Part shown: positions 3,414-33,787 of the stretch, piece after piece
Position numbering within the stretch: the stretch's first letter is position 1
Layout of the letters: the number at the start of each line of letters is the position of its first letter
Assembly: GCA_036399815.1 (NCBI GenBank)
Contig: DASWMK010000043.1
Coordinates: 1-62,279, forward strand
Direction of reading: 5' to 3'
Source: Acidimicrobiales bacterium
GTDB lineage: Bacteria > Actinomycetota > Acidimicrobiia > Acidimicrobiales > DASWMK01
Length of the DNA: 62,279 bases
Notes under the pieces: generated by a model
Databases searched by the model: none
What the model was told of the DNA's origin: nothing
What the model saw: the letters and a program-made list of their open reading frames with translations, nothing else
Position numbers and translations under genes: made by a program

Positions 3414-5006
3414 GTGCCCATATACGGTCAGCGGACCGATCAGGCGACGGAGCCCGTCGCCCATCGGAGCTTCGAGCTCCATGCGGAGCGCGCGCCGAAA
3501 CGGCTCGCGGTCACCTGCGGGGAACGGGCCTTCACCTACGGTCAGTTGAACGAGCGGGCCAACCAGCTCGCCCACTTCCTCGTCGCCAACGGCGTCGGTC
3601 CCGGGTCGGTCGTCGGCGTCTGCCTCGACCGCTCCCCCGAGCTCGTCGCCAGCATCCTCGGCATCCTGAAGGCGGGCGCGGCCTACTCCCCGCTCGACAC
3701 GACGTACCCGGACGAGCGGCTGGCGCTGATGACCGCCCAGCTCGACACGATGGAGTGGGTCGTCGCCTCGACGCGGACCCGGTCCCTCGTCGACCGGGCC
3801 GAGGCGCAGGTCCTCGACGTCGACGCCGTGGCGCCCGGCCTGGCGACGTTCCCGACGACCAACCCGCAGCGCCGGGTCACCGGCGACGACCTCTGCTACG
3901 TCGTGTTCACGTCCGGGTCGACGGGGCCGCCCAAGGCGACCGCCGTGCGCCACGCCGGCTGGCACAACCTGCTCAGCTGGCTGCGGGCCGACTTCGGCCT
4001 CGACGACTGGTCGAGCAACCTCCACATCAGCTCGATGGGCTTCGACATCAGCCAGCGCAGCCTCATGACGCCGCTGTTCACCGGCGCCACGCTCCACCTG
4101 CTGCCCAGCCGCAACTTCGACGCCATGCTGGCCAACCGGCTGGTCGCCCGGCTCGGGATCCGGACCCTGCACTGCGCGCCGAGCGCCCTCTACCTGATGA
4201 TGGAGCGCGAGGCGTCCCACGACACGGGCGCGCTCGACACCGTCCAGTACGTGTTCGTCGGCGGCGAGCCGCTCTCGGCCCGCCGGGTGCGGGACTGGCC
4301 GAACCGGCCGGAGCGCCAGGGCAGGCTCGTGAACGTCTACGGCGTGGCCGAGTGCAGCGACGTGTCGACGTTCCACGTGCTCGAGGACTTCGCCGGCTAC
4401 ACCGAGACCGGCGTGCCCATCGGCCGCCCGATCCACAACACCGACATCCACCTCCTCGACGAGGACCTGCAGCCCGTCGCCCACGGCGACGTCGGCGAGA
4501 TCTGCATCGCCGGGGCGGGGGTCGGCGCCGGCTACCTCAACGCCGAGGCGCTGACCCGCACCCGCTTCGTGCCGGCGCCGGCCGTCGGCGTCGAGCGCCT
4601 CTACCGCACGGGCGACCTGGGCCGGCTCCGCCCCGACGGCGCCATCGCCTGCATCGGCCGGGTCGACGACCAGGTGAAGGTGCGCGGGATGCGCATCGAC
4701 CTCGGCGACGTCGAGACCACCCTGCGCCGCAGCGAGCGCATCCACGACGCCGTCGTCGTCGCCGTCAAGGACGAGCAGGGCGAGACCGACCTGGTCGCCC
4801 ACGTCATCCTGTCGGCCACCTACGACGGCGAGTCCGACGAGCCGGCCCTGCGGGCCGAGGCCGCCGCCCTGCTCCCCCGGCACATGGTCCCCCGCTCCTT
4901 CGTCGTGGTCGACCGCTTCCCGCTCACCCCGAACGGCAAGGTCGACCGCGCCGCCCTGTCCCGCACGCCCGCCACCCGGGCCCCGATCGGCGCCTCCGCG
5001 TCGTGA
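3414..5006 (+). CDS. stand-alone NRPS-type adenylation enzyme (amino acid adenylation domain, no carrier domain)
   Basis: 530 aa. A-domain core motifs FTYGQL, LKAGAAYSPLD, FTSGSTGPPKA, FDIS, NVYGVAE, YRTGDL, GRVDDQVKVRG, PNGKVDR. The ORF ends about 20 aa after A10. Confidence 0.9.
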   Translation: MPIYGQRTDQATEPVAHRSFELHAERAPKRLAVTCGERAFTYGQLNERANQLAHFLVANGVGPGSVVGVCLDRSPELVASILGILKAGAAYSPLDTTYPDERLALMTAQLDTMEWVVASTRTRSLVDRAEAQVLDVDAVAPGLATFPTTNPQRRVTGDDLCYVVFTSGSTGPPKATAVRHAGWHNLLSWLRADFGLDDWSSNLHISSMGFDISQRSLMTPLFTGATLHLLPSRNFDAMLANRLVARLGIRTLHCAPSALYLMMEREASHDTGALDTVQYVFVGGEPLSARRVRDWPNRPERQGRLVNVYGVAECSDVSTFHVLEDFAGYTETGVPIGRPIHNTDIHLLDEDLQPVAHGDVGEICIAGAGVGAGYLNAEALTRTRFVPAPAVGVERLYRTGDLGRLRPDGAIACIGRVDDQVKVRGMRIDLGDVETTLRRSERIHDAVVVAVKDEQGETDLVAHVILSATYDGESDEPALRAEAAALLPRHMVPRSFVVVDRFPLTPNGKVDRAALSRTPATRAPIGASAS

Positions 5007-5050: not shown

Positions 5051-6007
5051 ATGACCGACGCTGCCCAGCTGCCCGCACCCACGCCCCACGTCGCCCGCGA
5101 CGCCGTCGTCGACGACGACATCCGCGACGACATCGCCCGGTTCGAGGCCGACGGCTTCCTGGGGCCGATCAAGCTCTACGAGCCGGACGAGGCGACGGAG
5201 ATGATCCGCGAGATCCGGGTGCAGAACCAGCGGCGGGAGAACGCGCTCTACCACAACAGCGTCAACTACGACCGCCACTTCGACATCTCGCTGCTGTCCC
5301 GCCACGTCTGCCACCCGACCATCGCCCGGTACCTCCAGGGCATCCTCGGGCCCGACGTGCTCCTGTGGCGCACCGAGTTCTTCCCGAAGTTCCCGGGCTC
5401 GGAGGGCACGGAGTGGCACCAGGTGCGGGACTACAGCTACGCTAACGGCAACCCGCAGCTGCTGCCCACCGAGACCGAGTGGAACGCGTTCATCGACATC
5501 ACGGTGTGGACGACGTTCACGCCGGCGACGCTCGAGACCGGCTGCATGCGGTTCATGCGCGGGTCGCACAAGCACTGGTACTTCGACGAGCGCAAGGCGA
5601 CGGCGAGGGGCCGCACCGGCGAGTACGACGTCAACGAGGTCGACACCCAGTTCTTCGGCTACGAGTTCTCGGACTTCAAGATCGACCCGTCCTGGGTGCC
5701 GCCGGACGAGGACGTCGTCAACCTCGTGATGGAGCCGGGCGAGGCCGTGATCTTCACCGCCAACTGCGTCCACGGCTCGCTCCCCAACCGCACCGAGCGC
5801 CAGACCCGGTTCGCCATCGCCGGGCGGTACGTGCCGACCCACGTCCGCGTCTACCCGGAGCAGGACTGGTTCACGGCCCACGGCGCCCGCTTCGACCTGA
5901 GCAACTACGGGAGCGTGCTGGTCGCCGGCCGCAACGACTACGACCACAACCGGATCAGGACCCACAACAACCTCGGCGAGCCGTTCACCACGAACTTCCC
6001 GCGCTGA
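5051..6007 (+). CDS. SyrB2/CmaB-like non-heme Fe(II)/2-oxoglutarate enzyme (carrier-protein-dependent halogenase type) with His-x-Val
   Basis: 318 aa. [48 protein letters not shown] and CVHGS align along the whole length with my recollection of SyrB2. The AGGA/GAGGA SD is present. Only the 3' third of track ORF 3353..6007 is real. Confidence 0.85.
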   Translation: [318 protein letters not shown]

Positions 6008-6094: not shown

Positions 6095-6319
6095 ATGGTG
6101 GCCGACACCATCCGCAGCATCTGGCGCAAGGAGCTCGACCTCGGCGAGTTCTCCGACGACGACGACTTCTTCGACCTGGGCGGCCACTCGCTGGTGATGG
6201 CGAGGATCCAGACCCGCATCAGCGAGGAGCTCGGCGTCGAGGTGCCGATGGACGACCTGTTCCGGCACTCGACCGTCGCCGGCATCTCGGGCTACCTCGA
6301 GCACGCGGCGGCGAAGTAG
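6095..6319 (+). CDS. free-standing peptidyl/aminoacyl carrier protein
   Basis: 74 aa. Phosphopantetheine site FFDLGGHSLVMARI. GGAAAGGA SD upstream. Confidence 0.85.
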   Translation: MVADTIRSIWRKELDLGEFSDDDDFFDLGGHSLVMARIQTRISEELGVEVPMDDLFRHSTVAGISGYLEHAAAK

Positions 6320-6349: not shown

Positions 6350-7615
6350 ATGGCGCTGCTGTCGCTCTGCGGAGCGAAGATGACGAGCCCGTCGGGGCTC
6401 CGGGCGATCATGCAGGACGTCGCCACGACGATCACCGACCCGCTCGACCGTGAGTGGCTCAACCTGAGCATCGGCAACCCGGCGGCGATCCCCGAGGTGA
6501 TCGCCATGTGGCGGCGGCTGACGGCCGACGCGCTGGCCTCGAAGTTCGAGGCGGTCAGCTGCCAGTACGGGCCGTCGCGGGGGGCCGAGGCGCTCCTCGA
6601 CGCCATCGTCCGCTACTTCGACGACCGCTACCGGTGGGGGCTGCTCCCCGACAACGTCGTCGTCGGGCCGGGCAGCCAGATGCTCTGCTTCGTCGCGGCC
6701 GCGCTGTACGCGGGGCCGAGCGACGCCGGCCTGCGCCGCATCGTGCTGCCCGTCGTGCCCGACTACACCGGCTACCAGGGCGTGTGCATGCACGCCGGCG
6801 GCATCGTCGGCGTCCCGCCGAGGATCGAGACCGACGGCGACCGCGGCTTCCGCTACGTCGTCGACCTCGACGCGCTCGAGCGGGTCGAGGACGTCGGCAT
6901 GTTCCTGCTGTCGACGCCGAGCAACCCGACGGGCCGGGCGGCCGACCCCGAGGAGCTCGACGCCATCGTCCGCATCGCCGAGGCGAGGGGCGTGCCCGTC
7001 GTCGTCGACAACGCCTACGGCGAGCCGTTCCCGCAGGTGGCGGCCACGCCGTCCCCGCCCGTGTGGCACCCCAACGTCATCAACCTGTTCACGATGTCGA
7101 AGGCGGGGATGCCGGGCGAGCGGATCGGCTTCGCCGTGGGCGCGGCCGAGTACACGACGGCGATGACGTCGTTCATCGCCAACTCGGCCCTGCACGCGCC
7201 CCAGCTCTCCCAGATCGTGCTGGCCAACGCGCTCGCCTCGGGCGACCTGGACCACACGGTCGGGTCCGTCATCACGCCGTACTACGCGAGCAAGCGCCGG
7301 ACGGCCGAGAAGCTGCTCGCCGAGCGGCTGCCGGAGTGGGTGGACTGGCGGCTGCACACGAGCGACGGCGGCATGTTCTGCTGGCTGTGGTTCGACCACG
7401 ACTGGTTCGACGACGCCGACTTCTACCGGCGGATGAAGGCCCGCAAGGTGTTCGTCGTCCCCGGCCGGCACTTCTTCGTCGACCCCGCCTCGGTCGGCCC
7501 GCACGGCACCCACTGCATCCGCATCAGCCTGAGCTCGGACGAGGCGATCCTCGCCGAGGGCATCGACCGGATGGCCGACGAGCTGGAGGAGCTGGGTCGT
7601 GGCGCTGGCCGTTGA
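6350..7615 (+). CDS. PLP-dependent class-I aminotransferase (valine-pyruvate/AvtA-like)
   Basis: 421 aa. Contains LSIGNPA, STPSNPTGR, NAYGEPFP and the SKAGMPGERIGF Lys motif. The start may be a few codons downstream. Confidence 0.85.
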   Translation: MALLSLCGAKMTSPSGLRAIMQDVATTITDPLDREWLNLSIGNPAAIPEVIAMWRRLTADALASKFEAVSCQYGPSRGAEALLDAIVRYFDDRYRWGLLPDNVVVGPGSQMLCFVAAALYAGPSDAGLRRIVLPVVPDYTGYQGVCMHAGGIVGVPPRIETDGDRGFRYVVDLDALERVEDVGMFLLSTPSNPTGRAADPEELDAIVRIAEARGVPVVVDNAYGEPFPQVAATPSPPVWHPNVINLFTMSKAGMPGERIGFAVGAAEYTTAMTSFIANSALHAPQLSQIVLANALASGDLDHTVGSVITPYYASKRRTAEKLLAERLPEWVDWRLHTSDGGMFCWLWFDHDWFDDADFYRRMKARKVFVVPGRHFFVDPASVGPHGTHCIRISLSSDEAILAEGIDRMADELEELGRGAGR

Positions 7616-8453
7616 CACCGTCCGGTCGGGCGGGACGGCGCTGACGGTCGGCTCGACGGCGGTCGACCCGGGCCGGCCGAGCCTGCTGTTCGTCAACGCC
7701 GTCGGCATGGAGGCGCCCCTGCTCGACGGGGTGGCCGCGCACGTCGAGGACGCCGGCCTCAACTTCCTCACCTGGGAGCTGCGGGGCAGTCCCGGGCCGG
7801 CCGACACCGGCGGTCCCGGCGACTTCTCGGTCGAGGCCCACGCCGCCGACGGGGTCGCCGTGCTCGACGCCTTCGGCGTGGACGACGCGGTCGTCGCCGG
7901 CTGGTGCACCGGCGCCACGATCGGGCTGTTCCTGGCGGCCGAGCTCGGCCCCCGGGCGACGGCGTTCGCGTCGATCGACGGCGCCTTCCTCTTCGAGGGC
8001 GCGCCCGGCGGGTCGGTCGGGAACTCCGTCTACGCGATGTGCGCGGCGATCGACGCCGACGAGGCGCTCGCCCCCGAGTACCATCACCTGCTCACCCTGC
8101 GGGGCGGCGACACGACGATCCCCGGGCTCGACGCCGACCCGGCGCTGATCCGCCGGCTCACCGCGCCCTACCGGACGGGCGACGGCCTGCTGCGGTTCGC
8201 GCGCGCCACCCGGGGCGCCTGCGCCTACGACCCCGCCGCCGTGCTCGCCACGCTCGCCTGCCCCACCTGGTTCGCGGCGCGCGTCGACGACACGATGGTC
8301 TCCTACCGCAAGAGCGAGACGGCCGCGGGCCTGGCCAGGGACGCCCGCCTGGTCGTCTACCCGTCGGGCGGCCACTGGGCCCTGTTCACCGAGCGACAGG
8401 TGCTCGACGACCTCACCGCCTTCGCGACCTCGGTGGTGGGCGCCCGCCGGTGA
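7599..8453 (+). CDS. alpha/beta-hydrolase-fold protein with Cys nucleophile (SyrC/CmaE-like aminoacyl transferase candidate)
   Basis: 284 aa. The nucleophile elbow is VAGWCTGATIG (Cys codon 7905-7907), with a later Asp (RVDDTMV) and His (SGGHWALF). It overlaps the aminotransferase by 17 nt. Confidence 0.75.
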   Translation: MALAVDTVRSGGTALTVGSTAVDPGRPSLLFVNAVGMEAPLLDGVAAHVEDAGLNFLTWELRGSPGPADTGGPGDFSVEAHAADGVAVLDAFGVDDAVVAGWCTGATIGLFLAAELGPRATAFASIDGAFLFEGAPGGSVGNSVYAMCAAIDADEALAPEYHHLLTLRGGDTTIPGLDADPALIRRLTAPYRTGDGLLRFARATRGACAYDPAAVLATLACPTWFAARVDDTMVSYRKSETAAGLARDARLVVYPSGGHWALFTERQVLDDLTAFATSVVGARR

Positions 8454-9376
8454 GCGCGCTCGGCATCCTCAGGCCACCGGCCCGGGCCGCCGGGCACGTC
8501 TACCTGGGCAACGTGGCCGCCACCGCCATGCTCAGCGGGATCTTCGTGTTCGGCGCCCGCAGCGTCCGCACGTCGGCGCCCGTCGAGGTCGCCGCCCAGC
8601 GCTTCACCCTGGCGACGCTCGTGTTCGGCCTGCTCTTCGTCGCCCGGGTCATCCGCCCGGTGCGCATCCGGCGGGCGTCGACCGGCGTCTACCTGCTGAT
8701 CGCCTCGTCGGCGGGGGTGTTCCTCTACAACGTCCTGTTCTTCGCCGGGCTCGACCTGTCGCTGGCGTCGAGCGGCGGGTTGATCATCGCCACCATCCCG
8801 GTGTGGACGTCGCTGCTCGAGTCGGCCGTCCTCGGCACCCGCCTGACCCTCCGCAAGGTGGTCGGCTCGCTCGTGTCGTTCAGCGGCGTCGCCTACCTGT
8901 TCCTCGCCTCGCTCGACTCCTCGGCCGGCCTGCTCGACTCGGACAACCTCGTCGGCGACCTCCTCTTCCTCGCCGCCGCCGTGTGCTGGGCCGTCTACTC
9001 GATCGCCATGAAGAAGGTGGTCGCCGAGGTCGAGCCCCGGGTGGCGACGGCCTACTCGGTCGGGATCGGGTCGGTGCTGCTCGTCGTCTGGAGCTTCCTC
9101 AGCAACGGCCACTCGCCCCTCAATGGCGAGATGCTCCACATCCCGATCATCTACATGGCGACGTTCGGCACGGTGTTCGCGCTGATGCTGTGGTTCCACA
9201 GCATCCAGGAGATCGGGCCGACCCGGACGAGCGTGTTCCTGAACCTCGTACCCGTCTATACCGTCGTGCTGGCCGCGGTGTTCTTGGACGAGTCGCTCGG
9301 ATTGTCCGTGCTCGTGGCGCTGTGCATCATCATCGCCGGCGTCCTCGTCGTGCAGACCGACCCGGCCCGCGCCTGA
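8450..9376 (+). CDS. EamA/DMT-family transporter
   Basis: About 308 aa and about 10 hydrophobic helices in two repeats. The GTG at 8450 overlaps the upstream TGA (GTGA). The 5' part of track ORF 7904..9376 is out of frame with the real gene. Confidence 0.8.
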   Translation: MSALGILRPPARAAGHVYLGNVAATAMLSGIFVFGARSVRTSAPVEVAAQRFTLATLVFGLLFVARVIRPVRIRRASTGVYLLIASSAGVFLYNVLFFAGLDLSLASSGGLIIATIPVWTSLLESAVLGTRLTLRKVVGSLVSFSGVAYLFLASLDSSAGLLDSDNLVGDLLFLAAAVCWAVYSIAMKKVVAEVEPRVATAYSVGIGSVLLVVWSFLSNGHSPLNGEMLHIPIIYMATFGTVFALMLWFHSIQEIGPTRTSVFLNLVPVYTVVLAAVFLDESLGLSVLVALCIIIAGVLVVQTDPARA

Positions 9377-9429: not shown

Positions 9430-10866
9430 ATGACCAAGATCACCTGTCTGGACGACGTCGACGACTCGCCGGCCAGCGTGGCGACGACCCGGCGGTGCCG
9501 CGTCGTGGCCGGGTTCCTCGCCCGCACGGACGGGCGGGAGATCGTCGAGCCGGCCGAGGCCGACCTCGCCACCGTCGTCGCCGCCCTGGCCGACCGGGGC
9601 GTGCTGCACTTCCGGCCGACCGGGGAGCCGGGGGTGGTCGCCGTCGACCACGTGCCGTCCGAGGCGGTCGTCCGCACGGCCACGGACGGGCTGAAGGAGT
9701 GGCCGTCGTCGGTCGCCAACCGCATGGCCAAGTCGGCGCGGCGGTCGGCCGGCGCGCTGTTCACGTTCCCGGACGAGTTGGGCGACGACGCCATCGAGGT
9801 GTTCATCACGGACTGGAGCCCGTGCCCCGGCGCGTGCGCCGTCGCCGTCCACCACGGCCACCCGTACGTCCGCGGGCGGGTGCCGTGGGACGACCGGCCC
9901 TCCTGGTTCACCGGCCTCTACGTGCGCCACCCGCTCACCGGCGACCTGCTCCCCGTGTGGGTGGCGGACTGGGTGAAGCCGGACTTCGGCACCGGCGCCG
10001 TCCTCGTCAACCCGGCCCACGACGCGGTCGACCTCGAGTTCGGCCGGTCGGTGGGCATGCCCATCCGGTTCGCGCTGATGCCGACGGGCGCGTCGGACAG
10101 CCCGGAGTCCTGGCCGGCACCACCGGTCATCAAGCAGGGCACGGCGATCAAGACGGGCCGGTGGGACGGCATGAACGTCGCCGACGCCCGCACCGCCTAC
10201 CGGGAGACGCTCGGCGAGCGGGGCCTGGCCAAGGACCACACCGACGTCCGCCTCCCCGGCTACCGCATCGGCACGCTCACCATGGACGACGCCGGGCCCT
10301 GGCGGTGGACGCCCGAGGACGGCCGGCTGGCGCCCGCGGGCGACGGCGACGGCGGCGGGCGGCGGGCCCGGCTGGAGCCGGCGCCGGTGCTGGCCGCGGC
10401 GGCCGCCGTGGTCGGCGGGGCGGAGGTCGTGATGATGGGGGCGACGGCGGTGAAGTCGGCCGCTCCCCTGCTCGTCACCCTGCTGAAGGACGGCGGGGTC
10501 GAGCGCATGCCCGCCGTGCAGGTCACCCAGACGGCGGACTACGGCGGGTCGCGCGAGTACGACGACGCGCTGCGCCTCGCCTACCTCGTCGCCGGCGACC
10601 CGAACCAGCCGGCGACGGTCAAGGAGGCCCTGCTCGAGCAGACCGAGCGGTTCCTCGCGGGGCTCGGCGAGATGAAGGAGCGGCTGGCGGAGGTGGGCGA
10701 GGCGCCCCCCAAGGGCGTCGCCTCGGCGCTCGACCGGGGCGACCCGGTCGCCCTGTTCCGCGAGCTGTACCGGTGGCAGAAGGACACGCTCAAGTCGGGC
10801 AAGCCCGTCGAGGAGCGGTCGTACCGGGCAGCGGTCAGCGCGCTGCTCGGCGACACCGGCTTCTGA
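9430..10866 (+). CDS. degenerate, shortened leucyl-tRNA-synthetase paralogue retaining the CP1 editing region (pseudo-synthetase)
   Basis: 478 aa. VFITDWSPCPGACAVAVHHGHPYV, HPLTGDLLPVWVADWVKPDFGTGAVLVNPAHDAVDLEFGRSVGMPI, and YDDALRLAYLVAGDPNQPATVKEALLEQTERFL parallel E. coli LeuRS segments (TTRPDT...AAGHPL; HPLTGEEIPVW...GTGAVMAVPGHDQRD; GADTVRLFMMF...ANRFL). No HIGH or KMSKS is visible. Very high GC3. Confidence 0.65.
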   Translation: MTKITCLDDVDDSPASVATTRRCRVVAGFLARTDGREIVEPAEADLATVVAALADRGVLHFRPTGEPGVVAVDHVPSEAVVRTATDGLKEWPSSVANRMAKSARRSAGALFTFPDELGDDAIEVFITDWSPCPGACAVAVHHGHPYVRGRVPWDDRPSWFTGLYVRHPLTGDLLPVWVADWVKPDFGTGAVLVNPAHDAVDLEFGRSVGMPIRFALMPTGASDSPESWPAPPVIKQGTAIKTGRWDGMNVADARTAYRETLGERGLAKDHTDVRLPGYRIGTLTMDDAGPWRWTPEDGRLAPAGDGDGGGRRARLEPAPVLAAAAAVVGGAEVVMMGATAVKSAAPLLVTLLKDGGVERMPAVQVTQTADYGGSREYDDALRLAYLVAGDPNQPATVKEALLEQTERFLAGLGEMKERLAEVGEAPPKGVASALDRGDPVALFRELYRWQKDTLKSGKPVEERSYRAAVSALLGDTGF

Positions 10867-10939
10867 CAAGGAAATCCCTGGCGGCGGGGCGCCCTCCACC
10901 CGTGTGGGCGCCCGATCCACGGCGAGTAGGTTGGCGATC

Positions 10940-13267
10940 ATGGCGCGCAGGATCGAGGTCGAGCTCACGAGCGAGCGCGACGACAACACGTGGACCTGGC
11001 GCGCCGCCGGCGCCCGCCAGCCGAAGGGCGTCCTCGACGGCTCGATCCTGTACCCGGGGGCGAAGGTCGGCGACGTCGTGCGGGCCGAGGCGGAGTTCGA
11101 CGTCGACGGGATCACCGTCGTCTCCGTGGTGCCGCCCAAGGAGGACCGCAAGGGGCCCGAGCGGCTGGAGCTGATCTCCTCTGGCCGGGACTTCGAGCCG
11201 GTCACCACCACGTTGGCGCCCCGGGGCCGCGGCGACCGCGACCGGCGGCGCGAGCGGCGCGACGGCGACCGCGACGGCCGGCCCGGGCGTCCCGGCGACC
11301 GCGACGCCGACCGGCGGCCGCGGGGCGACCGGCCCCACCGCCCGGGCGGCGACCGCCCGGGGGGCGAGCGGGGCCCCGGCGGCGACCGGCGGGAGCGGGG
11401 GGATCGCGGTGATCGCGCCGACCGCGGCGACCGAGCCGACCGCGGGGCCAGGCCGGACCGGCCGGGACGGGGCGCGGGTGCGCCGGTCGGCGCCGGCGAG
11501 CGTGGTCCGGGTGAGCGGCGGGGCCGCCCGCCGGGTGGCGAGCGCCGCCCCCGGCCGGAGCGCCCGGCGCCCGAGCCGAAGCCCAAGCCCAAGCGCCTGC
11601 GGGCCGGCCGCACGCACCGCAACGCCGTGCTGGCCGACCTGCCGCCCGAGCAGCGGCCGGTCGCCGAGCAGCTGCTGAGCGGCGGCATCCCGGCGGTCCG
11701 CCAGGCCCTCGAGCGCCAGAACGAGCAGCTGCGGTCGGAGGGCAAGCCGGAGGTCAAGGCCGACGCGCTGCTGGCCATGGCCGAGGAGCTGCACCCGCGG
11801 CTTCGGTCGGCCGAGTGGCGGGACCGGGCCGAGGCGGCGCTCGCCGAGGTGGACGAGGTCGACCTGCGGGACCTGCGGTCGGTGGTCGTCGCCGCCGACG
11901 ACGCGGCCCGGGACGAGGAGAGCCGGGAGCTGGCCTCCCGCCTGCGGGACTCGCTCAACACGAGGGTGGACCGGGAGCACGCCGAGTGGCAGGCCGAGCT
12001 GGCCGCCACCCTGGCCGACGGCCGGATCGTGCGGGCGCTGCGCCTGAGCAGCCGGCCGCCCAAGGCCGGTGTGCCGCTCCCCCCCGAGGTCGTCGCCCAG
12101 CTCACCGAGCAGGCGAACGCGGCGCTGACCGCCGAGGTCAGCCAGGACCGGTGGGCGGCGGTGCTCGACGCCATCGCCTACTCACCGGTGCGGCGGACGG
12201 TCGAGCCCGCCGGCGTGCCGCCCGAGCCGGGCGCCGAGCTGCTCGCCGCCGTGCGGAAGATCGCCGACCGGGTGCCCCAGATCGCCAGCCGGTTCGGGAT
12301 CGAGGCGCCGGCCCGCCCGGCCCGTCCCACCCGCCCGGGCCGGCCGCCCCAGCGCCCCGCCGGCGGACCCGGCCAGCCCCGCCGCCGCCCGCCGGGCAGC
12401 AACGGCGACACCCCCCGCCCCGCTCCCCCGGCCCGGGCCAACGGCGAGTCCGCCGGCGGCCCGCCCAGGACCCCGGCGCCCACGTCCGGCCCCGGCGCTC
12501 CGCCCGAGACGACCGACGCACCCGCAGACGCGTCGACCGAGACCGCCGACGCACCCGCCGACGCCGCGCCCGCGACCGCAGACGCGCCGCCCGAGAAGAC
12601 CGACGCATCCGCAGACGCGTCGCCGGAGACCGCCGACGCGCCCCTCGAGACCGCGCCGGCTGCGGCGTCGGCGGCTCCGGCCGCCGAGTCCGCCGGGTCG
12701 CCGTCCCCGGGTTCGGGCGAGCCCGCCGACACGACGGCCGCCGGGTCGGAGGGTGCGACCCCGGAGACCGACGGCGCACCGAGCGGGGGTGAGGCTCACA
12801 CCGCCGACGCGCCGGACGCCGCCGATGCCCGATGGGTTCAGGGCGCCGACGCAGCGCTCGGCGACGCCGCCGAGCCCGGTCCTCGGGCGGGCGACGCGAT
12901 GGACACCGGGTCGGCTCCGACCGGCCCGACGCCGGCTGCGGAGACCGCCGAGGCACCCGCCGCGGAGCCGGATCCGGCGTCGGCCGAGTCCGCCGACGCC
13001 CCGGCCGCAGGGTCGGCACCGGGCGCCCATCCGTCGGACGCCAGCACGGCCGCGACCGCCGACGCGCCGGTCGCGGAGTCCGCACCGAAGGCGGACCGGA
13101 CCGGCGAGCCGGCGGCCGCGGGGGCGGCGACGGCGTCGGCCGGGTCCGGCGACGCGCCGGCCGACGGGGGCGATCCCGCCGGCGCTGCCGCGTCGTCCGA
13201 GAGCGCCGGTGAGGCGAGCCCGCGCGGCGAGCCGGCGGACGGCGGGGACGAGCGGGGCGAGGGGTAG
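10940..13267 (+). CDS. conserved actinobacterial protein with R/G/D-rich and A/P/T/D-rich low-complexity regions
   Basis: 775 aa from ATG 10940. A folded N-terminus (MARRIEVELTSERDDNTWTWRAAG...) is followed by an RGDR-rich tract, a helical central domain, and a long acidic Ala/Pro/Thr tail with (E/K)T(A/T)DA(P/S)ADA repeats. Confidence 0.6.
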   Translation: MARRIEVELTSERDDNTWTWRAAGARQPKGVLDGSILYPGAKVGDVVRAEAEFDVDGITVVSVVPPKEDRKGPERLELISSGRDFEPVTTTLAPRGRGDRDRRRERRDGDRDGRPGRPGDRDADRRPRGDRPHRPGGDRPGGERGPGGDRRERGDRGDRADRGDRADRGARPDRPGRGAGAPVGAGERGPGERRGRPPGGERRPRPERPAPEPKPKPKRLRAGRTHRNAVLADLPPEQRPVAEQLLSGGIPAVRQALERQNEQLRSEGKPEVKADALLAMAEELHPRLRSAEWRDRAEAALAEVDEVDLRDLRSVVVAADDAARDEESRELASRLRDSLNTRVDREHAEWQAELAATLADGRIVRALRLSSRPPKAGVPLPPEVVAQLTEQANAALTAEVSQDRWAAVLDAIAYSPVRRTVEPAGVPPEPGAELLAAVRKIADRVPQIASRFGIEAPARPARPTRPGRPPQRPAGGPGQPRRRPPGSNGDTPRPAPPARANGESAGGPPRTPAPTSGPGAPPETTDAPADASTETADAPADAAPATADAPPEKTDASADASPETADAPLETAPAAASAAPAAESAGSPSPGSGEPADTTAAGSEGATPETDGAPSGGEAHTADAPDAADARWVQGADAALGDAAEPGPRAGDAMDTGSAPTGPTPAAETAEAPAAEPDPASAESADAPAAGSAPGAHPSDASTAATADAPVAESAPKADRTGEPAAAGAATASAGSGDAPADGGDPAGAAASSESAGEASPRGEPADGGDERGEG

Positions 13268-15517: not shown

Positions 15518-15961
15518 CTACGGCGCGGTGTGGACGACGAGCACGTCGCAGGGCGCGTGGTGGGACACGGCGCCGGCGACGCTGCCGAGGAGGAAGCGGG
15601 TGGCCGGGGTGCCGAGCCCCTTCGAGCCGACGACGACGAGGTCGGCGTCGAACTCCTCGGCGGTGGCGACGATCACGTCGGCCGGGTCGCCGGGCTCGGC
15701 CCGCACGACCACGTCGGCGACCCCGAGCTCGGCGGCGAGCGCCCGGGCCCTCCTCGCCTCGGCCTCGGCCGTCGCCCGGTCGCCGACCATCCAACGGAGG
15801 TCCTCGGGGGCCACCTCGCCGTCGCCGTCGCCGTGCGGGTGGTAGGCGGTGACGGCGACCAGGCGGGCGCCGGCCCGGGCGGCCAGCTCGCCGGCGTGGC
15901 GGACGGCCTCCTCGGCCGTGGACGAGCCGTCGGTCCCGACGACGACCGTTCGGTAGGTCAC
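15518..15961 (-). CDS. universal stress protein (UspA family)
   Basis: 147 aa. Contains VVVGTDGSSTAEEAV and the nucleotide-binding VGSKGLGTPATRFLLGSVAGAVSHHAPCDVLVV. The GTG at 15961 overlaps the cyclase stop (GTGA). Confidence 0.85.
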   Translation of the reverse strand: MTYRTVVVGTDGSSTAEEAVRHAGELAARAGARLVAVTAYHPHGDGDGEVAPEDLRWMVGDRATAEAEARRARALAAELGVADVVVRAEPGDPADVIVATAEEFDADLVVVGSKGLGTPATRFLLGSVAGAVSHHAPCDVLVVHTAP

Positions 15962-18900
15962 GGTGCTCCCTTCGCCATCGACCGGGCGCCTCCCTGTTCG
16001 GACGCGGCGGCGACCGCGGCCGACAGCGCGGCCGCCGCGAGGTCGCGGGTCTCGGCGCTCTCCTCGGAGCCGTCCGCCGCCTCGGCGGCGAGGGCGAGCG
16101 CCCTGGCGCCGTCGCCGCCGTCCGCCTCCAGCAGGGCGAGCGCAGCGGCCGCGTGGCGCCACGCCGTCGTCGCCGGGCCGTCGCCCCGCAGCCCGACCGC
16201 CTCCTCGAGCAGGAGGCGGGCGTCGTCGGTCCCCTCCCCCACCGCCCGGGCCAGCGCGACGAGCGCCCGGACCTCGCTCTCCCGCTCCCCGCCACCGCCC
16301 CGCACGACGGCGAGCGCCGCCCTCGCCGCCCTGGCCGCCTCGTCCCGCTCGCCGGCGTCGGCCGCCACGGCGGCGATCTCGGCCAGGAGCCTCGCCTCCT
16401 CGGCGGCCGCCCCGACCCGCCTGGCCCGGTCGAGCCCGGCCGCCAGCCACCGCCGGGCCTCGGCCCGGTCGCCGGCCGCCCGGGCCACCGTCCCCTTGAG
16501 CCGCAGGGCGGCGGCCTCGCCCCACGGGTCGCCCAGCTCGGCGAACAGCCGGTCGGCGTCGTCGGCCCGTTGGCGGGCCTCGGCGAGGTCGCCGGCCTCG
16601 GCCGCGCTGGCGGCCAGCAGCAGCGAGCAGATCCCCTCGGCCCACGGGTCGCCCTGGGAGCGGGCCTGGGCCCGCAGGCTGGCGCCGATGTCGGCGGCCT
16701 GCGCCACCCGGCCCTCCTGGAGCAGGGTGAACCCGAGGATGGCGAGGCACCAGCCGATGCCGGCCGGGTCGCCCCGCTCGGCGAAGCGGCCGGCCGCCCG
16801 CCACAGGTGGCCCCTCGCGGCGGGCACCGAGCCGAGCTGGAACTCGCACCACCCGAGGGACTGGAGGGTCTCGGCCGTCTCCTCGCCGGCCGATCGCTCG
16901 AGGTCGAGGGCCCGGAGCAGCCGGGGCAGGGCGAACCGGGACCGGCCGGCCAGCACCTCGACCCAGCCCTGGAGGCGCAGGGTGGCGGCCTCGCCGAGCG
17001 GGTCGCCGATGGCCCGCCACCGGGCTTGGGCGTCCTCGAAGCGGGACCGGCTGCGGCCGACGTCGCCCCGCAGACGGTCGACGGCCCCGAGGCGGGCGAT
17101 GGCCTCGGCCGTCATCGGCCCGCCGTCGCCGTCCCTGGCCAGCACCTCCTCGAAGGCCGCTGCGGCGGCGTCGAGGCGGCGCAGCCCGACGAGCACGACG
17201 CCGTGCTCGAGCGCCACCCTGGCCGGGTGGGGGGCGTCGCGGCCGGCGGGCAGGGCGCCGAGGTCGCGCGCCCGCTGGTACCAGCCGTCCGCGTCCCGGA
17301 GGGCGTCCCTGGCGTGGGCGTCCCTGGCCGCCCGCACGAGGTGGTCGACGGCGGTGGCGGCCAACCCGTGGTCGGTGTGGCCGAGCTGGAGGTCGAGGGC
17401 GACGGCCCGCTCGTAGTGGTGGGCGACGAGGCCGAGCACCGCCGCCTCGCCCTCCGGCCCCCACCGGTTCCGGAGCCAGGCGGCCACCCTGGCGTGCTTG
17501 CGGGCCCGCTCGCCGAGGGGGACGGCCGCGTAGGCCACCTCGCTTGTGAGCCCGTGGCGGAAGGCGAGGTCGCCGGCCGGGTCGTCGGCGGCGTGAGGCT
17601 CGATGACGCCCCTCGTGACGAGGGCGTCGACCGTGCCGTCGACGTCGGCGTGGTCGTCGAGGGCGGCGACCGCCTCCCGCCAGAACGACCGGCCGACGAT
17701 CGCCGCGTCCTGGAGGAACCGGCGCTGGTGGAGGGGCAGGGCGTCGAGGCGGGCGCCGATCAGGGAGCGGACGCCGTCGGGCAAGCCGACGGTGGCGAGG
17801 TTGGTCGCCGCCAGCCACCGGCCACCCACCTCGGTGATGGCGCCGGTCTCCGACAGCCACCGCACGAGCTCCTCGAGCAGCAGCGGGTTGCCGCCGCCGG
17901 CGTCGAGGAGGCGGCGCTCGGCGGCGGGGCCGATGGCGCCCACCCCGGCCGGGTCGCCGGGCCCGGCGAGCAGGCCGTGGAGGAGGCGGGCGGCGGCCTC
18001 CCGGTCGAGCGGGGCGAGGGCGAGGGCGGGGCCGGGCCAGTCGGCGGCCGCCGGCAGCTCCCTGGCCAGGGCGACGGCCAGCAGCGGGCGGCCCGGCCCC
18101 CGGCCGGCCAGCTGGCGGAGGAGCCCGAGGACGGCGTCGTCGGCCCACTGGAGGTCGTCGAACACGACGAGCACGGGCCGGGTGGCGGCCAGCCCCTCGA
18201 GCACGATGCGGACGGCGCCCACCAGCTCGTCGGCCACCCTGGCCCGCGCCGGGAGCCCGCCGTCGGCCGCGCCCCGGCCCGGCTCGGCGAGGCCGAGAAG
18301 CTGGGCGATCCGCGCCGTCAGGACGGCGACGTCGGCGCCCACGGCCGCCGCCACCGGCCCGAGCCCCTCGGCCAGGCGGTGGTGCTGGGCCGGGCGCGGG
18401 TCGCCGGTCTCGACCCCGAACGCCGAGCGGACGAGGTCGGCCAGCGGGTCGAGCGCGCCGGCCCCGCCGTAGGGGTCGCAGCCGGCCCACAGCAGCTCGC
18501 ACTCGGGGCGCGACCGCCACAGGGTGATGGCGAGCTCGAGGGCGAGGCGGGTCTTGCCGAGCCCGGCCTCGCCGGTGACGGCGACGACGCCGGCCCGGCC
18601 CTCGGCGAAGGCCCGCTCGGCCTCGGCCGCCAGCACGGCCAGCTCGTCGTCCCGGCCGACGAGCGGCGCGCCGAGCCCGAGCGCGCCCCGGCCCGGGCCC
18701 CGGCGGGTGCCGACCGCGGCCCAGGCCCGCACCGGGGCCGACTTGCCCCGCAGGTGGTACGCGGGCCTCGCCTCGTAGGCGATGGCGTCGACGGTGGCCG
18801 CCCAGGTCCGCTCGCCCACCAGCACCTCGCCCGGCCGGGCCACCGACACCAGGCGGTGGGCCGTGTTCACGGTGTCGCCGGTGACCGTGTAGGCGCCGCC

Positions 18901-19347
18901 CGGCCCGACCGGCCCGGCCAGCACCTCGCCGGTGTTGATCCCGACCCGCAGGACGAGCCCCGGCCCGGGCGCCTCGAGGGCGGCGGCGAGGCCGAGCGCC
19001 GACCGCACGGCCCGCTCGGCGTCGTCCTCGTGGGCCACCGGCGCGCCGAACACGGCCATCAGCTCGTCGCCGATGATCTTGTCCACGTGGCCGCCGTGGC
19101 CCTCGACCACGGGGACGAGCGCGCCGAAGCACCGGTCCAGCAGCTCTTTGACGGCCTCCGGGTCGCGGCCCTCGGCCAGGGTGGTGAACCCGGCGAGGTC
19201 GGCGAACACGACCGTCACCACGCGGCGCTCCTCGACGGCGGCCCCGAGCGACGGCGCCGCCGCCGCCACGGCCGTGCCGCAGGCCGGGCAGAAGCGGGCG
19301 CCGTCCGGGAGCACCGACGAGCAGGACGGGCAGCGCACGCCCGTCAC
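15958..19347 (-). CDS. zinc-ribbon / class III adenylate(guanylate) cyclase / P-loop ATPase / TPR multidomain protein
   Basis: 1129 aa. Zinc ribbon CPSCSSVLPDGARFCPACG. Cyclase motifs VVFADLAGFT, IGDELMAVFG, INTGEV, GDTVNTAHRL. Walker A VTGEAGLGKTRLA. Long Ala/Leu/Arg-rich TPR-like C-terminus. Confidence 0.85.
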   Translation of the reverse strand: MTGVRCPSCSSVLPDGARFCPACGTAVAAAAPSLGAAVEERRVVTVVFADLAGFTTLAEGRDPEAVKELLDRCFGALVPVVEGHGGHVDKIIGDELMAVFGAPVAHEDDAERAVRSALGLAAALEAPGPGLVLRVGINTGEVLAGPVGPGGAYTVTGDTVNTAHRLVSVARPGEVLVGERTWAATVDAIAYEARPAYHLRGKSAPVRAWAAVGTRRGPGRGALGLGAPLVGRDDELAVLAAEAERAFAEGRAGVVAVTGEAGLGKTRLALELAITLWRSRPECELLWAGCDPYGGAGALDPLADLVRSAFGVETGDPRPAQHHRLAEGLGPVAAAVGADVAVLTARIAQLLGLAEPGRGAADGGLPARARVADELVGAVRIVLEGLAATRPVLVVFDDLQWADDAVLGLLRQLAGRGPGRPLLAVALARELPAAADWPGPALALAPLDREAAARLLHGLLAGPGDPAGVGAIGPAAERRLLDAGGGNPLLLEELVRWLSETGAITEVGGRWLAATNLATVGLPDGVRSLIGARLDALPLHQRRFLQDAAIVGRSFWREAVAALDDHADVDGTVDALVTRGVIEPHAADDPAGDLAFRHGLTSEVAYAAVPLGERARKHARVAAWLRNRWGPEGEAAVLGLVAHHYERAVALDLQLGHTDHGLAATAVDHLVRAARDAHARDALRDADGWYQRARDLGALPAGRDAPHPARVALEHGVVLVGLRRLDAAAAAFEEVLARDGDGGPMTAEAIARLGAVDRLRGDVGRSRSRFEDAQARWRAIGDPLGEAATLRLQGWVEVLAGRSRFALPRLLRALDLERSAGEETAETLQSLGWCEFQLGSVPAARGHLWRAAGRFAERGDPAGIGWCLAILGFTLLQEGRVAQAADIGASLRAQARSQGDPWAEGICSLLLAASAAEAGDLAEARQRADDADRLFAELGDPWGEAAALRLKGTVARAAGDRAEARRWLAAGLDRARRVGAAAEEARLLAEIAAVAADAGERDEAARAARAALAVVRGGGGERESEVRALVALARAVGEGTDDARLLLEEAVGLRGDGPATTAWRHAAAALALLEADGGDGARALALAAEAADGSEESAETRDLAAAALSAAVAAASEQGGARSMAKGAP

Positions 19348-32179: not shown

Positions 32180-33787
32180 CTAGTCGAGGGTCGGGCGGCG
32201 GCGCTCGGCCCGGCGCTCGGACTCGAGGCGCTCGAGGTCGGGCTCGGGCGAGTGGTCGGCGAAGCGCATCATCTCCGCCACCGCCGGGTGGCCGGCCTCC
32301 TCCTCGATGAGGCGGTGCATCTCCTGGCCGATGCGGCGGTAGGCGGGGTGGCCCTGGGTGGTGGTGCGCAGCTCGATCAGGTGCATGGCCTCGCGGGCGT
32401 TGAGCTGGATGCTGAACCGCACCCGGTAGGCCAGGCACACGACGTAGGCGGCCTGCTCGGGGAAGCGCTCGGCCAGCGCCTCGTACAGGGCGGCCGAGCG
32501 GTCCATGGCCTCGTCGAAGGGCCCGTCCAGCCCGGCGGCGTCCACGGCGGCGGGACGGTCGTAGCCGTGCCGGGGGCTGAGCGCCTGCCACTCGATGGTC
32601 AGCATGCGGTGGCGCTGGAGGTCCCGGAAGGCGCCGTAGTCGGCGAGGACGTCGAAGCGGTAGGCCACCCGCTCGAGCGCCCGGCCCGGCTTGTGGCGCC
32701 GGTTGGCCCGCTCCCCCACGTAGGCCCGCACGACGGCCAAGCGCTCGTCGGCGCCCATCCCCCGCACCCGCTTCTCGACCTGGTCCTCGGGCAGGGTCGT
32801 GTACGGGTAGAGCATCGCCGTCACGAGCTTGGTCTCGGCCTCGGGGTCGTGGTCGACCAGGCGGACCTCGGGCGACGGCGCCGGCTCCTCCCCGGCGAAC
32901 AGCTCGGCGGCCAGGCCCGCCATCGCCTCCCTGGTCGAGGCCAGGTAGGCCGACCAGGCCCCGCCCCGGTCGGCCAGGTCGACCCGCTTGAGGAACGACG
33001 GGATGACCTTGCGCAGCTCGGTGAGCATCAGGTCGGCGTAGGCCCTGGCCTCGGGCAGCGGGTGGGCCCGCATGCGCAGCAGGAGCTGCTCGTAGCCCTG
33101 CCCCGTGCCGTAGATCCCGACGTTGGACAGCGAGGCCGCCGGCAGCACCCCGCGGGCCGCGTCCAGCGCCTTGGCCCGCACCGCCTGGCGGTAGACGAGG
33201 TCGGAGTCGCCGGCCTGCTTCGGCGTGCAGACCCTGAACCAGTCCTGGAGGGCCGGGACGAGGCCGGCGTAGGCGTCGAACAGCCGGTCCATGTCGCCCA
33301 CGTAGCGGGTGCCGAGCGGCGACGAGCAGACCTCCGGGTCCCGGTAGAAGCGGTAGCGCCCGCCGAGCCTCGTGTCGTAGGCGATGTACCTGGTCGACTG
33401 CTCCAGGTAGGACATCAGCCGGCCCCACTCGAGCACCTTGGTGAGCAGGTTCGAGGCCTGCTCGCAGGCGAGGTGGACCCCGCCGAGCTGGGCCACCGAG
33501 TCGTCCCCGTAGGCGAAGAAGACCCGGTCGTAGAGCTCCTCGGCCCGCCGCAGCCCCACGGTGGCGTCGATGCCGGCGTCGCCGGTGACGTCGAGGTCCC
33601 CCACGAACTCGTCGAGGAAGAGCCGGCGCAGGCTCTTCGGCGACCGGGAGTAGCGGGCGAACAGCGCCCCCTTCACCACCTCGGGCAGGTTCACCAGGGC
33701 GAACACCGGGCCGTCGAGGTTCGTGAAGTAGCGGCGGAGGACGTCCTCCTCGTCGTCGGTGAACTCCTCGGCGACGTACAGGGTCAC
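32180..33787 (-). CDS. ThyX-domain protein (long, double-domain FAD-dependent thymidylate synthase-like)
   Basis: 535 aa. Contains ALFARYSRS and the RHR motif FRDLQRHRMLT. Its length fits the tandem ThyX-like architecture. Confidence 0.65.
   Translation of the reverse strand: MTLYVAEEFTDDEEDVLRRYFTNLDGPVFALVNLPEVVKGALFARYSRSPKSLRRLFLDEFVGDLDVTGDAGIDATVGLRRAEELYDRVFFAYGDDSVAQLGGVHLACEQASNLLTKVLEWGRLMSYLEQSTRYIAYDTRLGGRYRFYRDPEVCSSPLGTRYVGDMDRLFDAYAGLVPALQDWFRVCTPKQAGDSDLVYRQAVRAKALDAARGVLPAASLSNVGIYGTGQGYEQLLLRMRAHPLPEARAYADLMLTELRKVIPSFLKRVDLADRGGAWSAYLASTREAMAGLAAELFAGEEPAPSPEVRLVDHDPEAETKLVTAMLYPYTTLPEDQVEKRVRGMGADERLAVVRAYVGERANRRHKPGRALERVAYRFDVLADYGAFRDLQRHRMLTIEWQALSPRHGYDRPAAVDAAGLDGPFDEAMDRSAALYEALAERFPEQAAYVVCLAYRVRFSIQLNAREAMHLIELRTTTQGHPAYRRIGQEMHRLIEEEAGHPAVAEMMRFADHSPEPDLERLESERRAERRRPTLD

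Follow-up and report, generated by a model that had tools for sequence, protein, structure and literature searches.

The 62,279-nucleotide stretch analysed here (the window; contig DASWMK010000043.1 of assembly GCA_036399815.1, from an Acidimicrobiales bacterium) carries at 5051–6007, on the forward strand, a gene for an Fe(II)/2-oxoglutarate (2OG) enzyme of the SyrB2/CytC3 lineage, and we found that this enzyme has His-Gln-Val (HQV) in place of the HxA/G motif by which radical halogenases are recognised. As judged from the sequences of the enzyme and its homologues, the Val breaks this diagnostic motif throughout a whole clade and is under selection, and it occurs in a small, conserved pathway that is probably directed to a leucine antimetabolite and probably includes a new type of trans-editing immunity protein.

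The open reading frame (ORF) extends from ATG 5051 to the stop codon at 6005–6007 and encodes 318 residues, which are numbered here from that ATG; in a rival database gene call, with its start at GTG 5003, the protein has 334 aa and the numbers are shifted by 16. The sequence GAGGA is found ~8 nt upstream of ATG 5051, and 318 aa fits the lengths of the homologues (315–320 aa). The frame is intact, with a very high GC content at third codon positions (GC3). The gene and the codons discussed below are as follows.

5051–6007, + strand: Fe(II)/2OG enzyme, 318 aa, of the SyrB2/CytC3 lineage and HQV clade, assigned by PF05721, TIGR01762, phmmer and an AlphaFold2 model
5417–5425, + strand: codons cac-cag-gtg of H123-Q124-V125, the proximal His and the Val that stands where the carboxylate is missing; ungapped on SyrB2 H116-Q-A118 and CytC3 H118-Q-A120
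5438–5440, + strand: codon of Y130, a clade-specific residue, always Tyr in HQV enzymes, against Asn123 in SyrB2 and His in CytC3; sequences of the close HxA clade have N, H or E here
5495–5497, + strand: codon of D149, a clade-specific acidic residue, D or E throughout the core HQV clade; Thr in SyrB2 (Thr141) and CytC3
5759–5761, + strand: codon of A237, in place of SyrB2 Ser231; Ala in 98% of the HQV clade, Ser in 6/6 close HxA sequences
5771–5773, + strand: codon of H241, the distal His ligand in CVHGS; on SyrB2 H235 and CytC3 H240, invariant in the alignment of 32 clade members
5807–5809, + strand: codon of R253, predicted to bind the C5-carboxylate of 2OG; aligned with the SyrB2 Arg in EMRMGF

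The 318-aa protein matches PF05721 (PhyH; E 1e-24) and the NCBIfam model TIGR01762, 'chlorinating enzyme', with 302 bits against a cutoff of 226. When all PDB chains were searched with phmmer, CytC3 (E 6e-72, residues 26–312) and SyrB2 (E 4e-66, residues 28–312) stood far ahead of the rest, sharing ~41–42% identity almost from end to end. With an alignment of 32 clade members as input, AlphaFold2 gave a model (mean pLDDT, 89.4; pTM, 0.90) whose best fold match in the PDB by Foldseek was, in the structural comparison that an earlier sequence-only reading of this DNA had proposed, SyrB2 (2fct; TM-score, 0.84–0.89), followed by CytC3. That reading had located H123-Q124-V125 at 5417–5425, had aligned a 28-residue stretch with SyrB2 and had assigned the distal His to CVHGS; the codons indeed lie in the frame of the ORF, phmmer pairs the quoted stretch residue for residue, and the His of CVHGS is H241. 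Because the stretch pairs without gaps, V125 sits on SyrB2 A118 and CytC3 A120, and the triad position is free of a carboxylate, as had been claimed. The same reading had asked whether a shifted alignment might bring D127, or an Ala or Gly, to the ligand position, which is not the case: D127 is paired with SyrB2 T120 and was rejected as a shifted ligand, and its position is N, T, K, A or R in those HQV subclades that are embedded in nonribosomal peptide synthetases (NRPSs). The enzyme hence presents the PhyH fold, the two His ligands and the 2OG-binding Arg with Thr and Trp of the SyrB2-type family, and it has HQV instead of the canonical HxD/E...H triad of hydroxylases. R253 and R259 are invariant in the clade alignment and in every representative; the SyrB2 counterpart of R253, which we take to bind 2OG, is presumably R248, a number counted from the alignment.

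The Val is not confined to this enzyme. WHQV was present in 120/120 homologues listed (55–78% identity) by a search of 5.8 billion proteins, and HQV in 124/124 full-length clade members, none of which has the Ala or Gly of HxA/G. Thus, the replacement of Ala or Gly by Val, regarded in the sequence-only reading as a peculiarity of one enzyme, is real but marks, without exception, the members of a broad sister clade. The Val codons at 54 related loci were GTC (19), GTG (15), GTA (10) and GTT (10); since four synonymous codons are used, selection acts on the amino acid at this position. Moreover, among 56 related genome loci obtained by a pattern-limited scan, HQV was retained down to ~48% identity, and HQA appeared only at 40% identity or below. 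In a neighbour-joining tree, the HQV sequences were monophyletic and sister to the SyrB2/CytC3 HxA clade. The clade spans Actinomycetota, Pseudomonadota, Cyanobacteria, Planctomycetota and others, with loci in actinomycetes (Streptomyces, Actinoplanes, Microbispora, Rhodococcus and Mycobacterium) and elsewhere (Pseudomonas, Burkholderia, Pandoraea, Xenorhabdus, Pectobacterium, Nostoc, Aquimarina, Planctomycetota and Polyangiaceae), and with a homologue of 60% identity in Klebsiella aerogenes from the protein search. It includes T-Hal fusion proteins (P0086, P0095 and P0116; Hal, the HQV enzyme; T, carrier domain), and automatic annotation labels it 'chlorinating enzyme'.

The HxV frequency survey suggested by the sequence-only reading was extended to the wider family, using the 128 closest 50%-identity representative clusters in which the first His was aligned. 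The third-position residue was A in 51 clusters, V in 18, D in 17, T in 15 and N in 8, with E (6), G (5), S (4), F (3) and Y (1) making up the remainder, so that Val is the second commonest residue at this position. HxV has an independent origin in at least one lineage, that of the LHQV[TSD]D proteins of ~400 aa. Many HxA proteins of the wider family carry Glu at the position of SyrB2 Ser231 (FTERxIHGS), which, as read from the alignment, may be a relocated carboxylate. Given Thr, Asn, Ser, Phe or Tyr at the third position and Glu at the Ser231 position, the HxA/G motif taken alone may both miss and over-call halogenases.

Around the iron, the 2OG and second-shell positions shared with SyrB2 (E109, K113, T120, T151, W153, R253 and R259) are invariant. 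The replacements relative to SyrB2 in the HQV clade are V125 (A118), Y128 (F121), Y130 (N123), A237 (S231) and D/E149 (T141), Y128 being replaced by F in some HQV subclades. Position 149, which is Q or N in more distant relatives, lies two residues before the conserved T151, on the strand adjoining that of the distal His in the secondary structure of the model. A118, F121 and S231 of SyrB2 are reported to line the chloride pocket; with the pocket so composed, V125, Y128 and A237 are aligned there, and the SyrB2-type pocket is not preserved as such. Simple geometry suggests that Val could turn its Cβ-H to the halide with the methyl groups splayed and need not clash with chloride; V125, A237, Y128 and Y130 would then form a tighter but unblocked pocket.

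The enzyme gene belongs to a run of same-strand genes, called in the window on the basis of GC3, that are separated by gaps of 87 nt or less or overlap slightly. Besides the enzyme gene, the run comprises the following.

3414–5006, + strand: standalone adenylation (A) protein, 530 aa; AMP-binding and AMP-binding_C, TIGR01733 with 386 bits, code DIRHFGVDV
6095–6319, + strand: standalone peptidyl carrier protein (PCP or T), 74 aa; PF00550 with E 4e-19, phosphopantetheine-attachment motif LGGHSL
6350–7615, + strand: AvtA-like class I/II aminotransferase, 421 aa; NF006967, valine--pyruvate transaminase, with 405.6 bits against a cutoff of 402
7599–8453, + strand: α/β-hydrolase-fold protein, 284 aa, with a Cys nucleophile in GWCTG; PF00561 with E 1e-8, AGWCTGATIG present
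8450–9376, + strand: EamA-family exporter, 308 aa; PF00892 with E 8e-41, in two stretches
9430–10866, + strand: standalone protein, 478 aa, with a CP1 editing domain of the leucyl-tRNA synthetase (LeuRS) type at its centre; PF13603 with E 1e-19, matches to 3o0a and 1h3n with E ~1e-16

The enzyme gene is thus flanked by genes for a standalone A protein and a PCP, a genomic context consistent with a carrier-bound substrate. No PF00975-type thioesterase is encoded in the window, unlike in most of the related loci, and the α/β hydrolase is a candidate for the release enzyme or an aminoacyl shuttle. Its GWCTG Cys elbow beside a SyrB2-type enzyme recalls the aminoacyl-shuttling α/β hydrolases CmaE and SyrC. 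As the operon contains only one carrier protein, hydrolytic release is as likely as shuttling of the CmaE/SyrC type.

The A-Hal-T core is syntenic at ~30 loci, with the HQV gene between those for A and T, and at 30 or more loci the core is accompanied by a thioesterase or hydrolase and by an exporter, the exporters being of the EamA or LysE family. An AvtA-like homologue follows the T gene at at least 15 actinomycete loci and is replaced by a class IV aminotransferase at the Actinoplanes locus; S. gobitricini (L004) has a homologue of the α/β hydrolase, 47% identical to the product of 7599–8453. Additional genes at many Streptomyces loci encode a LeuA-like synthase, LeuC, a LeuD-LeuB fusion, Cupin_2, EamA, a type II thioesterase and a protein of the Na+/H+-exchanger family, and private leucine-type genes of this kind are found in Streptomyces and relatives at L006–L013, L015–L018, L031, L057 and L061. 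The Klebsiella (L001) and Pseudomonas (L060) loci add DmpF/DmpG-like acetaldehyde dehydrogenase and 4-hydroxy-2-oxovalerate aldolase, LysE, Cupin_2 and a thioesterase, with an additional Zn-ADH-family reductase at the Pseudomonas locus. An AraC regulator with DUF2000 adjoins the cluster in Klebsiella and Streptomyces. In Pectobacterium betavasculorum (L048, 98-17635), the HQV enzyme is embedded in an NRPS line, with the gene order 3268-aa NRPS, HQV enzyme, thioesterase, A-KR-T-T protein, second thioesterase and MATE exporter, which indicates that the clade also serves assembly-line products. The context of one further HQV homologue (P0118), a 3.8-kb contig, was uninformative.

The specificity code of the A protein, read via a reconstructed GrsA register, is DIRHFGVDV, and the form DIRHFG[Q/V]DV(K) is shared by the A genes of L001–L031 and L057, DIRHFG[Q/V]DV being common to Streptomyces, Actinoplanes, Rhodococcus, Klebsiella, Pseudomonas, Burkholderia, Xenorhabdus and Salinisphaera. 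Its constancy across these lineages points to one shared, non-canonical substrate. To our knowledge, DIRHFG[Q/V]DV fits no canonical code, and the substrate proposed below is deduced from other evidence. CytC-type HQA loci (L053–L055) have a Val-like A code, DALWLGGTF.

The protein encoded at 9430–10866 has a standalone editing fold and the amino-group-binding Asp expected of an editing factor, and it is predicted from these features to be an aminoacyl-tRNA deacylase for self-protection. Twelve copies of 445–530 aa were collected (window, L004, L020–L026, L033, L049 and L060), and the CP1 protein is found beside the A-Hal-T core in S. gobitricini, Burkholderia alba, eight Pseudomonas loci and a Planctomycetota genome, an adjacency counted in four phyla. 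The motif [IV]TDWS[SP] occurs in 11/12 copies, the Planctomycetota copy (L049) differing, and takes the place of the threonine-rich TTRPDT peptide of LeuRS. All copies have the GTGA/GGGA…PAH-type motif with its second Asp conserved, and the second Asp of the motif GTGAVLVNPAHDAVDLEF is kept in 12/12 CP1 homologues. The presence of a tRNA deacylase gene in a cluster is a recognised sign of a pathway for a non-canonical amino acid, so far for the AlaX family only (PMC13149037). Like BesG and the fluorothreonyl-tRNA deacylase, both of that family, the window protein would be a trans-acting, self-protective factor encoded beside a non-canonical amino acid pathway (PMC13149037), but its fold is that of the CP1 domain of LeuRS, a class I enzyme, with a diverged threonine-rich motif. 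No free-standing CP1 protein or class I editing factor is described in PMC13149037 or in a 2024 review of editing factors.

These observations lead us to favour, with moderate confidence and on the strength of alignments and gene context, the view that the HQV enzyme is a true carrier-dependent radical chlorinase with a remodelled halide pocket, making a free leucine mimic such as γ-chloronorvaline. The nearest solved relatives, CytC3 and SyrB2, are chlorinases, and the absence of a triad Asp or Glu from every clade member supports the same assignment. A system of standalone A protein, PCP, Fe/2OG enzyme, hydrolase and exporter, as recognised from family matches and synteny, implies that the product is a free modified amino acid. 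Indeed, the cytC1-4 and 4-chlorothreonine cassettes have the same layout and make free chlorinated antimetabolites. The operon probably makes a toxic leucine-like amino acid; the leucine mimicry is deduced from context, in that the immunity-type gene is a LeuRS editing domain and several versions of the cassette carry private leucine-pathway enzymes. The latter could supply a chain-elongated 2-oxo acid or raise the leucine supply, the effect by which a deregulated isopropylmalate synthase makes cells resistant to norvaline (PMC11057210). A C5 2-oxo acid could be reached either by elongation of 2-oxobutyrate in the manner of LeuABCD or by aldol chemistry of the DmpFG type, which would make norvaline the most economical shared substrate. 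γ-Chloronorvaline is a known natural 'leucine analog' from Streptomyces with Cl in place of a leucine methyl group (PMC8659048, ref. 82). No gene cluster assigned to it was found in the literature searched, which yielded only a review citing the 1980 isolation.

With gene functions taken from family matches and with order and chemistry deduced, the pathway may be envisaged as follows. The AvtA-like transaminase would make an L-amino acid from a 2-oxo acid, preferably norvaline from 2-oxovalerate, and the A protein would charge the 74-aa PCP with it. The HQV enzyme would hold Fe by H123 and H241 and 2OG by R253, with chloride most likely still bound in a pocket rebuilt from V125, A237, Y128 and Y130; the ferryl species would take a side-chain hydrogen from the aminoacyl-S-PCP, and rebound of chlorine would give a chloro amino acid such as 4-chloronorvaline, with Cl in place of a leucine methyl group. 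Presumably, the Cys-type α/β hydrolase then frees the product and the EamA protein exports it, and within the producer the standalone CP1 deacylase would clear tRNA-Leu that had been mischarged with norvaline or with the product. Ordinary LeuRS editing, which must spare leucine, would let a chlorinated isostere pass, and a dedicated CP1 variant with a changed motif would thereby be explained.

Several points weigh against a chlorinase. All three presumed chloride-pocket residues are changed, which may mean that the pocket has ceased to hold chloride, and the Val is accompanied by the clade-specific acidic D/E149, which could have taken over as a ligand or have altered the second sphere. The A code is polar (R, H, Q/V and D; R239, H278 and D330 in GrsA numbering), which is unexpected for norvaline or another aliphatic substrate; no halogenation-specific accessory gene is present in the operon, and the 56 related genome loci of the pattern-limited scan include none from S. 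griseosporeus, a species with a γ-chloronorvaline-producing strain. Furthermore, every radical halogenase reported to 2026 has Ala or Gly at the third position (PMC13489965, PMC13519999), and a missing carboxylate is necessary but insufficient for halogenation, since second-sphere residues set the rebound partner (bioRxiv 10.1101/2024.09.19.613983).

Accommodating these points, the HQV clade might consist of non-halogenating oxygenases, in which Val fills the halide site and the ferryl species, held by the two His alone or by the two His with D/E149, hydroxylates, desaturates or cyclises the PCP-bound amino acid to give, for instance, a hydroxy- or dehydro-norvaline or -leucine; this is possible but doubtful in our estimation. 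Val, with its two extra methyl groups, is invariant, the pocket positions have shifted jointly (S231 to A, F121 to Y and N123 to Y), and an acidic residue has been gained at 149 throughout the core clade on the strand beside the distal His. In the wider family, the third position is D/E in 23/128 and T/N/S in 27/128 representatives, frequencies which argue that the chemistry at this site has been switched repeatedly. On the other hand, D and E interchange at 149, as is atypical of a geometrically strict relocated ligand, and this position is V in basal HxV relatives (P0124) and N in the independent HxV lineage; moreover, we know of no Fe/2OG enzyme with a relocated carboxylate, and both the sister clade and the architecture of the cassette are of the chlorinase type. 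LeuRS activates and proofreads hydroxy leucine analogues, according to a reference cited in PMC11295145, which is compatible with an oxygenase; yet ordinary LeuRS editing should then clear a hydroxy product, and a dedicated CP1 protein with an altered motif would be harder to explain. In an extended and similarly tentative form of the proposal, the HQV clade would be a new functional class, in which Val caps the site, D/E149 and Tyr130 rebuild the iron environment, and non-halogenating radical chemistry on PCP-bound amino acids (desaturation, cyclisation or an unusual hydroxylation) leads to leucine-mimic toxins, which producers would survive by means of a free-standing class I (CP1) editing protein of a kind not described before.

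It is improbable that the enzyme is instead a halogenase-type radical transferase with an altered choice of anion, either stricter for chloride over bromide or using another small anion. The pocket appears rebuilt rather than degraded, with V125, A237, Y128 and Y130 invariant or nearly so, the two new Tyr hydroxyls could hydrogen-bond an anion, and known halogenases transfer Br- and N3- if supplied (PMC13489965). However, neither the operon nor the related loci contain a gene for supply of an unusual anion, and chloride is the abundant physiological anion. Nor do we know of any natural non-halide transfer by the SyrB2-type family. That the protein is catalytically dead, as a decayed halogenase or a structural partner, is very unlikely: the departure from the HxA/G rule is the sole support for this option, which the sequence-only reading had left standing, whereas the frame is intact and very rich in GC3, both His ligands and the 2OG-binding residues are invariant, the Val has been kept across phyla through synonymous codon changes, and the position of the gene between A and T is kept in dozens of genomes. 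An inactive enzyme or a sequencing oddity was rejected on the same clade-wide evidence. Sequence by itself does not decide between a halogenase, perhaps with an altered anion preference, and a different radical outcome; the context would favour a chlorinated leucine isostere.

The carrier-dependent chlorinase that we favour may be compared with characterised systems. SyrB2, the Thr-S-SyrB1 4-chlorinase of syringomycin biosynthesis (2FCT), has the same fold, two His ligands, no triad carboxylate and the same 2OG positions, and is likewise partnered with an A domain and a carrier protein; the window enzyme differs in belonging to a separate monophyletic clade, and the code of its partner, DIRHFGVDV, is no Thr code. 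CytC3 (3GJA), its best sequence match, has HQA. The cytC1-4 cassette, which makes the free antimetabolite γ,γ-dichloroaminobutyrate (armentomycin), is organised alike, with standalone A and T proteins, an Fe/2OG enzyme and a release enzyme, to which the window operon adds the transaminase, the exporter and the CP1 deacylase. The radical halogenases BesD, WelO5, AspX and BtnX likewise hold their iron with two His and no carboxylate, and their ferryl/rebound chemistry is the one expected here (PMC13489965), but they have HxG/A, act on free substrates without a carrier protein and belong to other Fe/2OG lineages. The 4-chlorothreonine and coronamic acid pathways are discussed in PMC13149037. BolV, the 'novel desaturase' of bolagladin biosynthesis, was considered as a characterised relative and dropped, as the preprint gives no enzyme family. 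A 2026 atlas mined from the AlphaFold database retained only Ala/Gly sites (PMC13489965), and the Halogenase DB pipeline gives 'HxG/A' as the catalytic triad (PMC13519999); with the motif defined as HxA/G, both 2026 surveys exclude the HQV clade. The term 'HXV' was not found in the literature searched, from which many subscription papers fell outside, so that an earlier characterisation is possible. By its sequence, the window enzyme can be placed in the SyrB2 superfamily but not demonstrably in the functional class 'halogenase'.

Directly after the CP1 gene, a 778-aa ORF of high GC3 extends over 10931–13267 (+ strand). It has no Pfam or NCBIfam match, and none of the homologues of neighbouring genes from related loci maps to it; a frameshift or a composite gene is possible, the frame plot being irregular near 11300 and across 12500–13100. 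The remainder of the window, 15958–62000, is actinobacterial core chromosome, with the following features.

15958–19347: adenylate cyclase-AAA-TPR protein
~20.0–30.7 kb: Mce/MlaD operon
32180–33787: ThyX, 534 aa, with two Thy1 stretches
36804–39497: DEAD/DSHCT helicase
46.4–55.3 kb: Pup ligase and deamidase with the proteasomal ATPase (Pup-proteasome system)
60573–61961: S13 D-Ala-D-Ala carboxypeptidase

Radical halogenases are sought as catalysts for C-H functionalisation and are found by the rule of two His plus Ala or Gly. If the HQV enzymes chlorinate, the motif must be widened to HxV, and atlases based on motif or structure miss a whole clade; if they do not, many database entries are misannotated, and nature has provided in this clade an experiment on how a site near the iron steers the fate of the radical. 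The CP1 protein may be the first trans-acting editing factor derived from the CP1 domain of a class I synthetase, and it could serve as a hook for genome mining, as AlaX-type deacylases already do. Collectively, the operon points to an uncharacterised leucine-antimetabolite pathway, possibly the missing route to γ-chloronorvaline.

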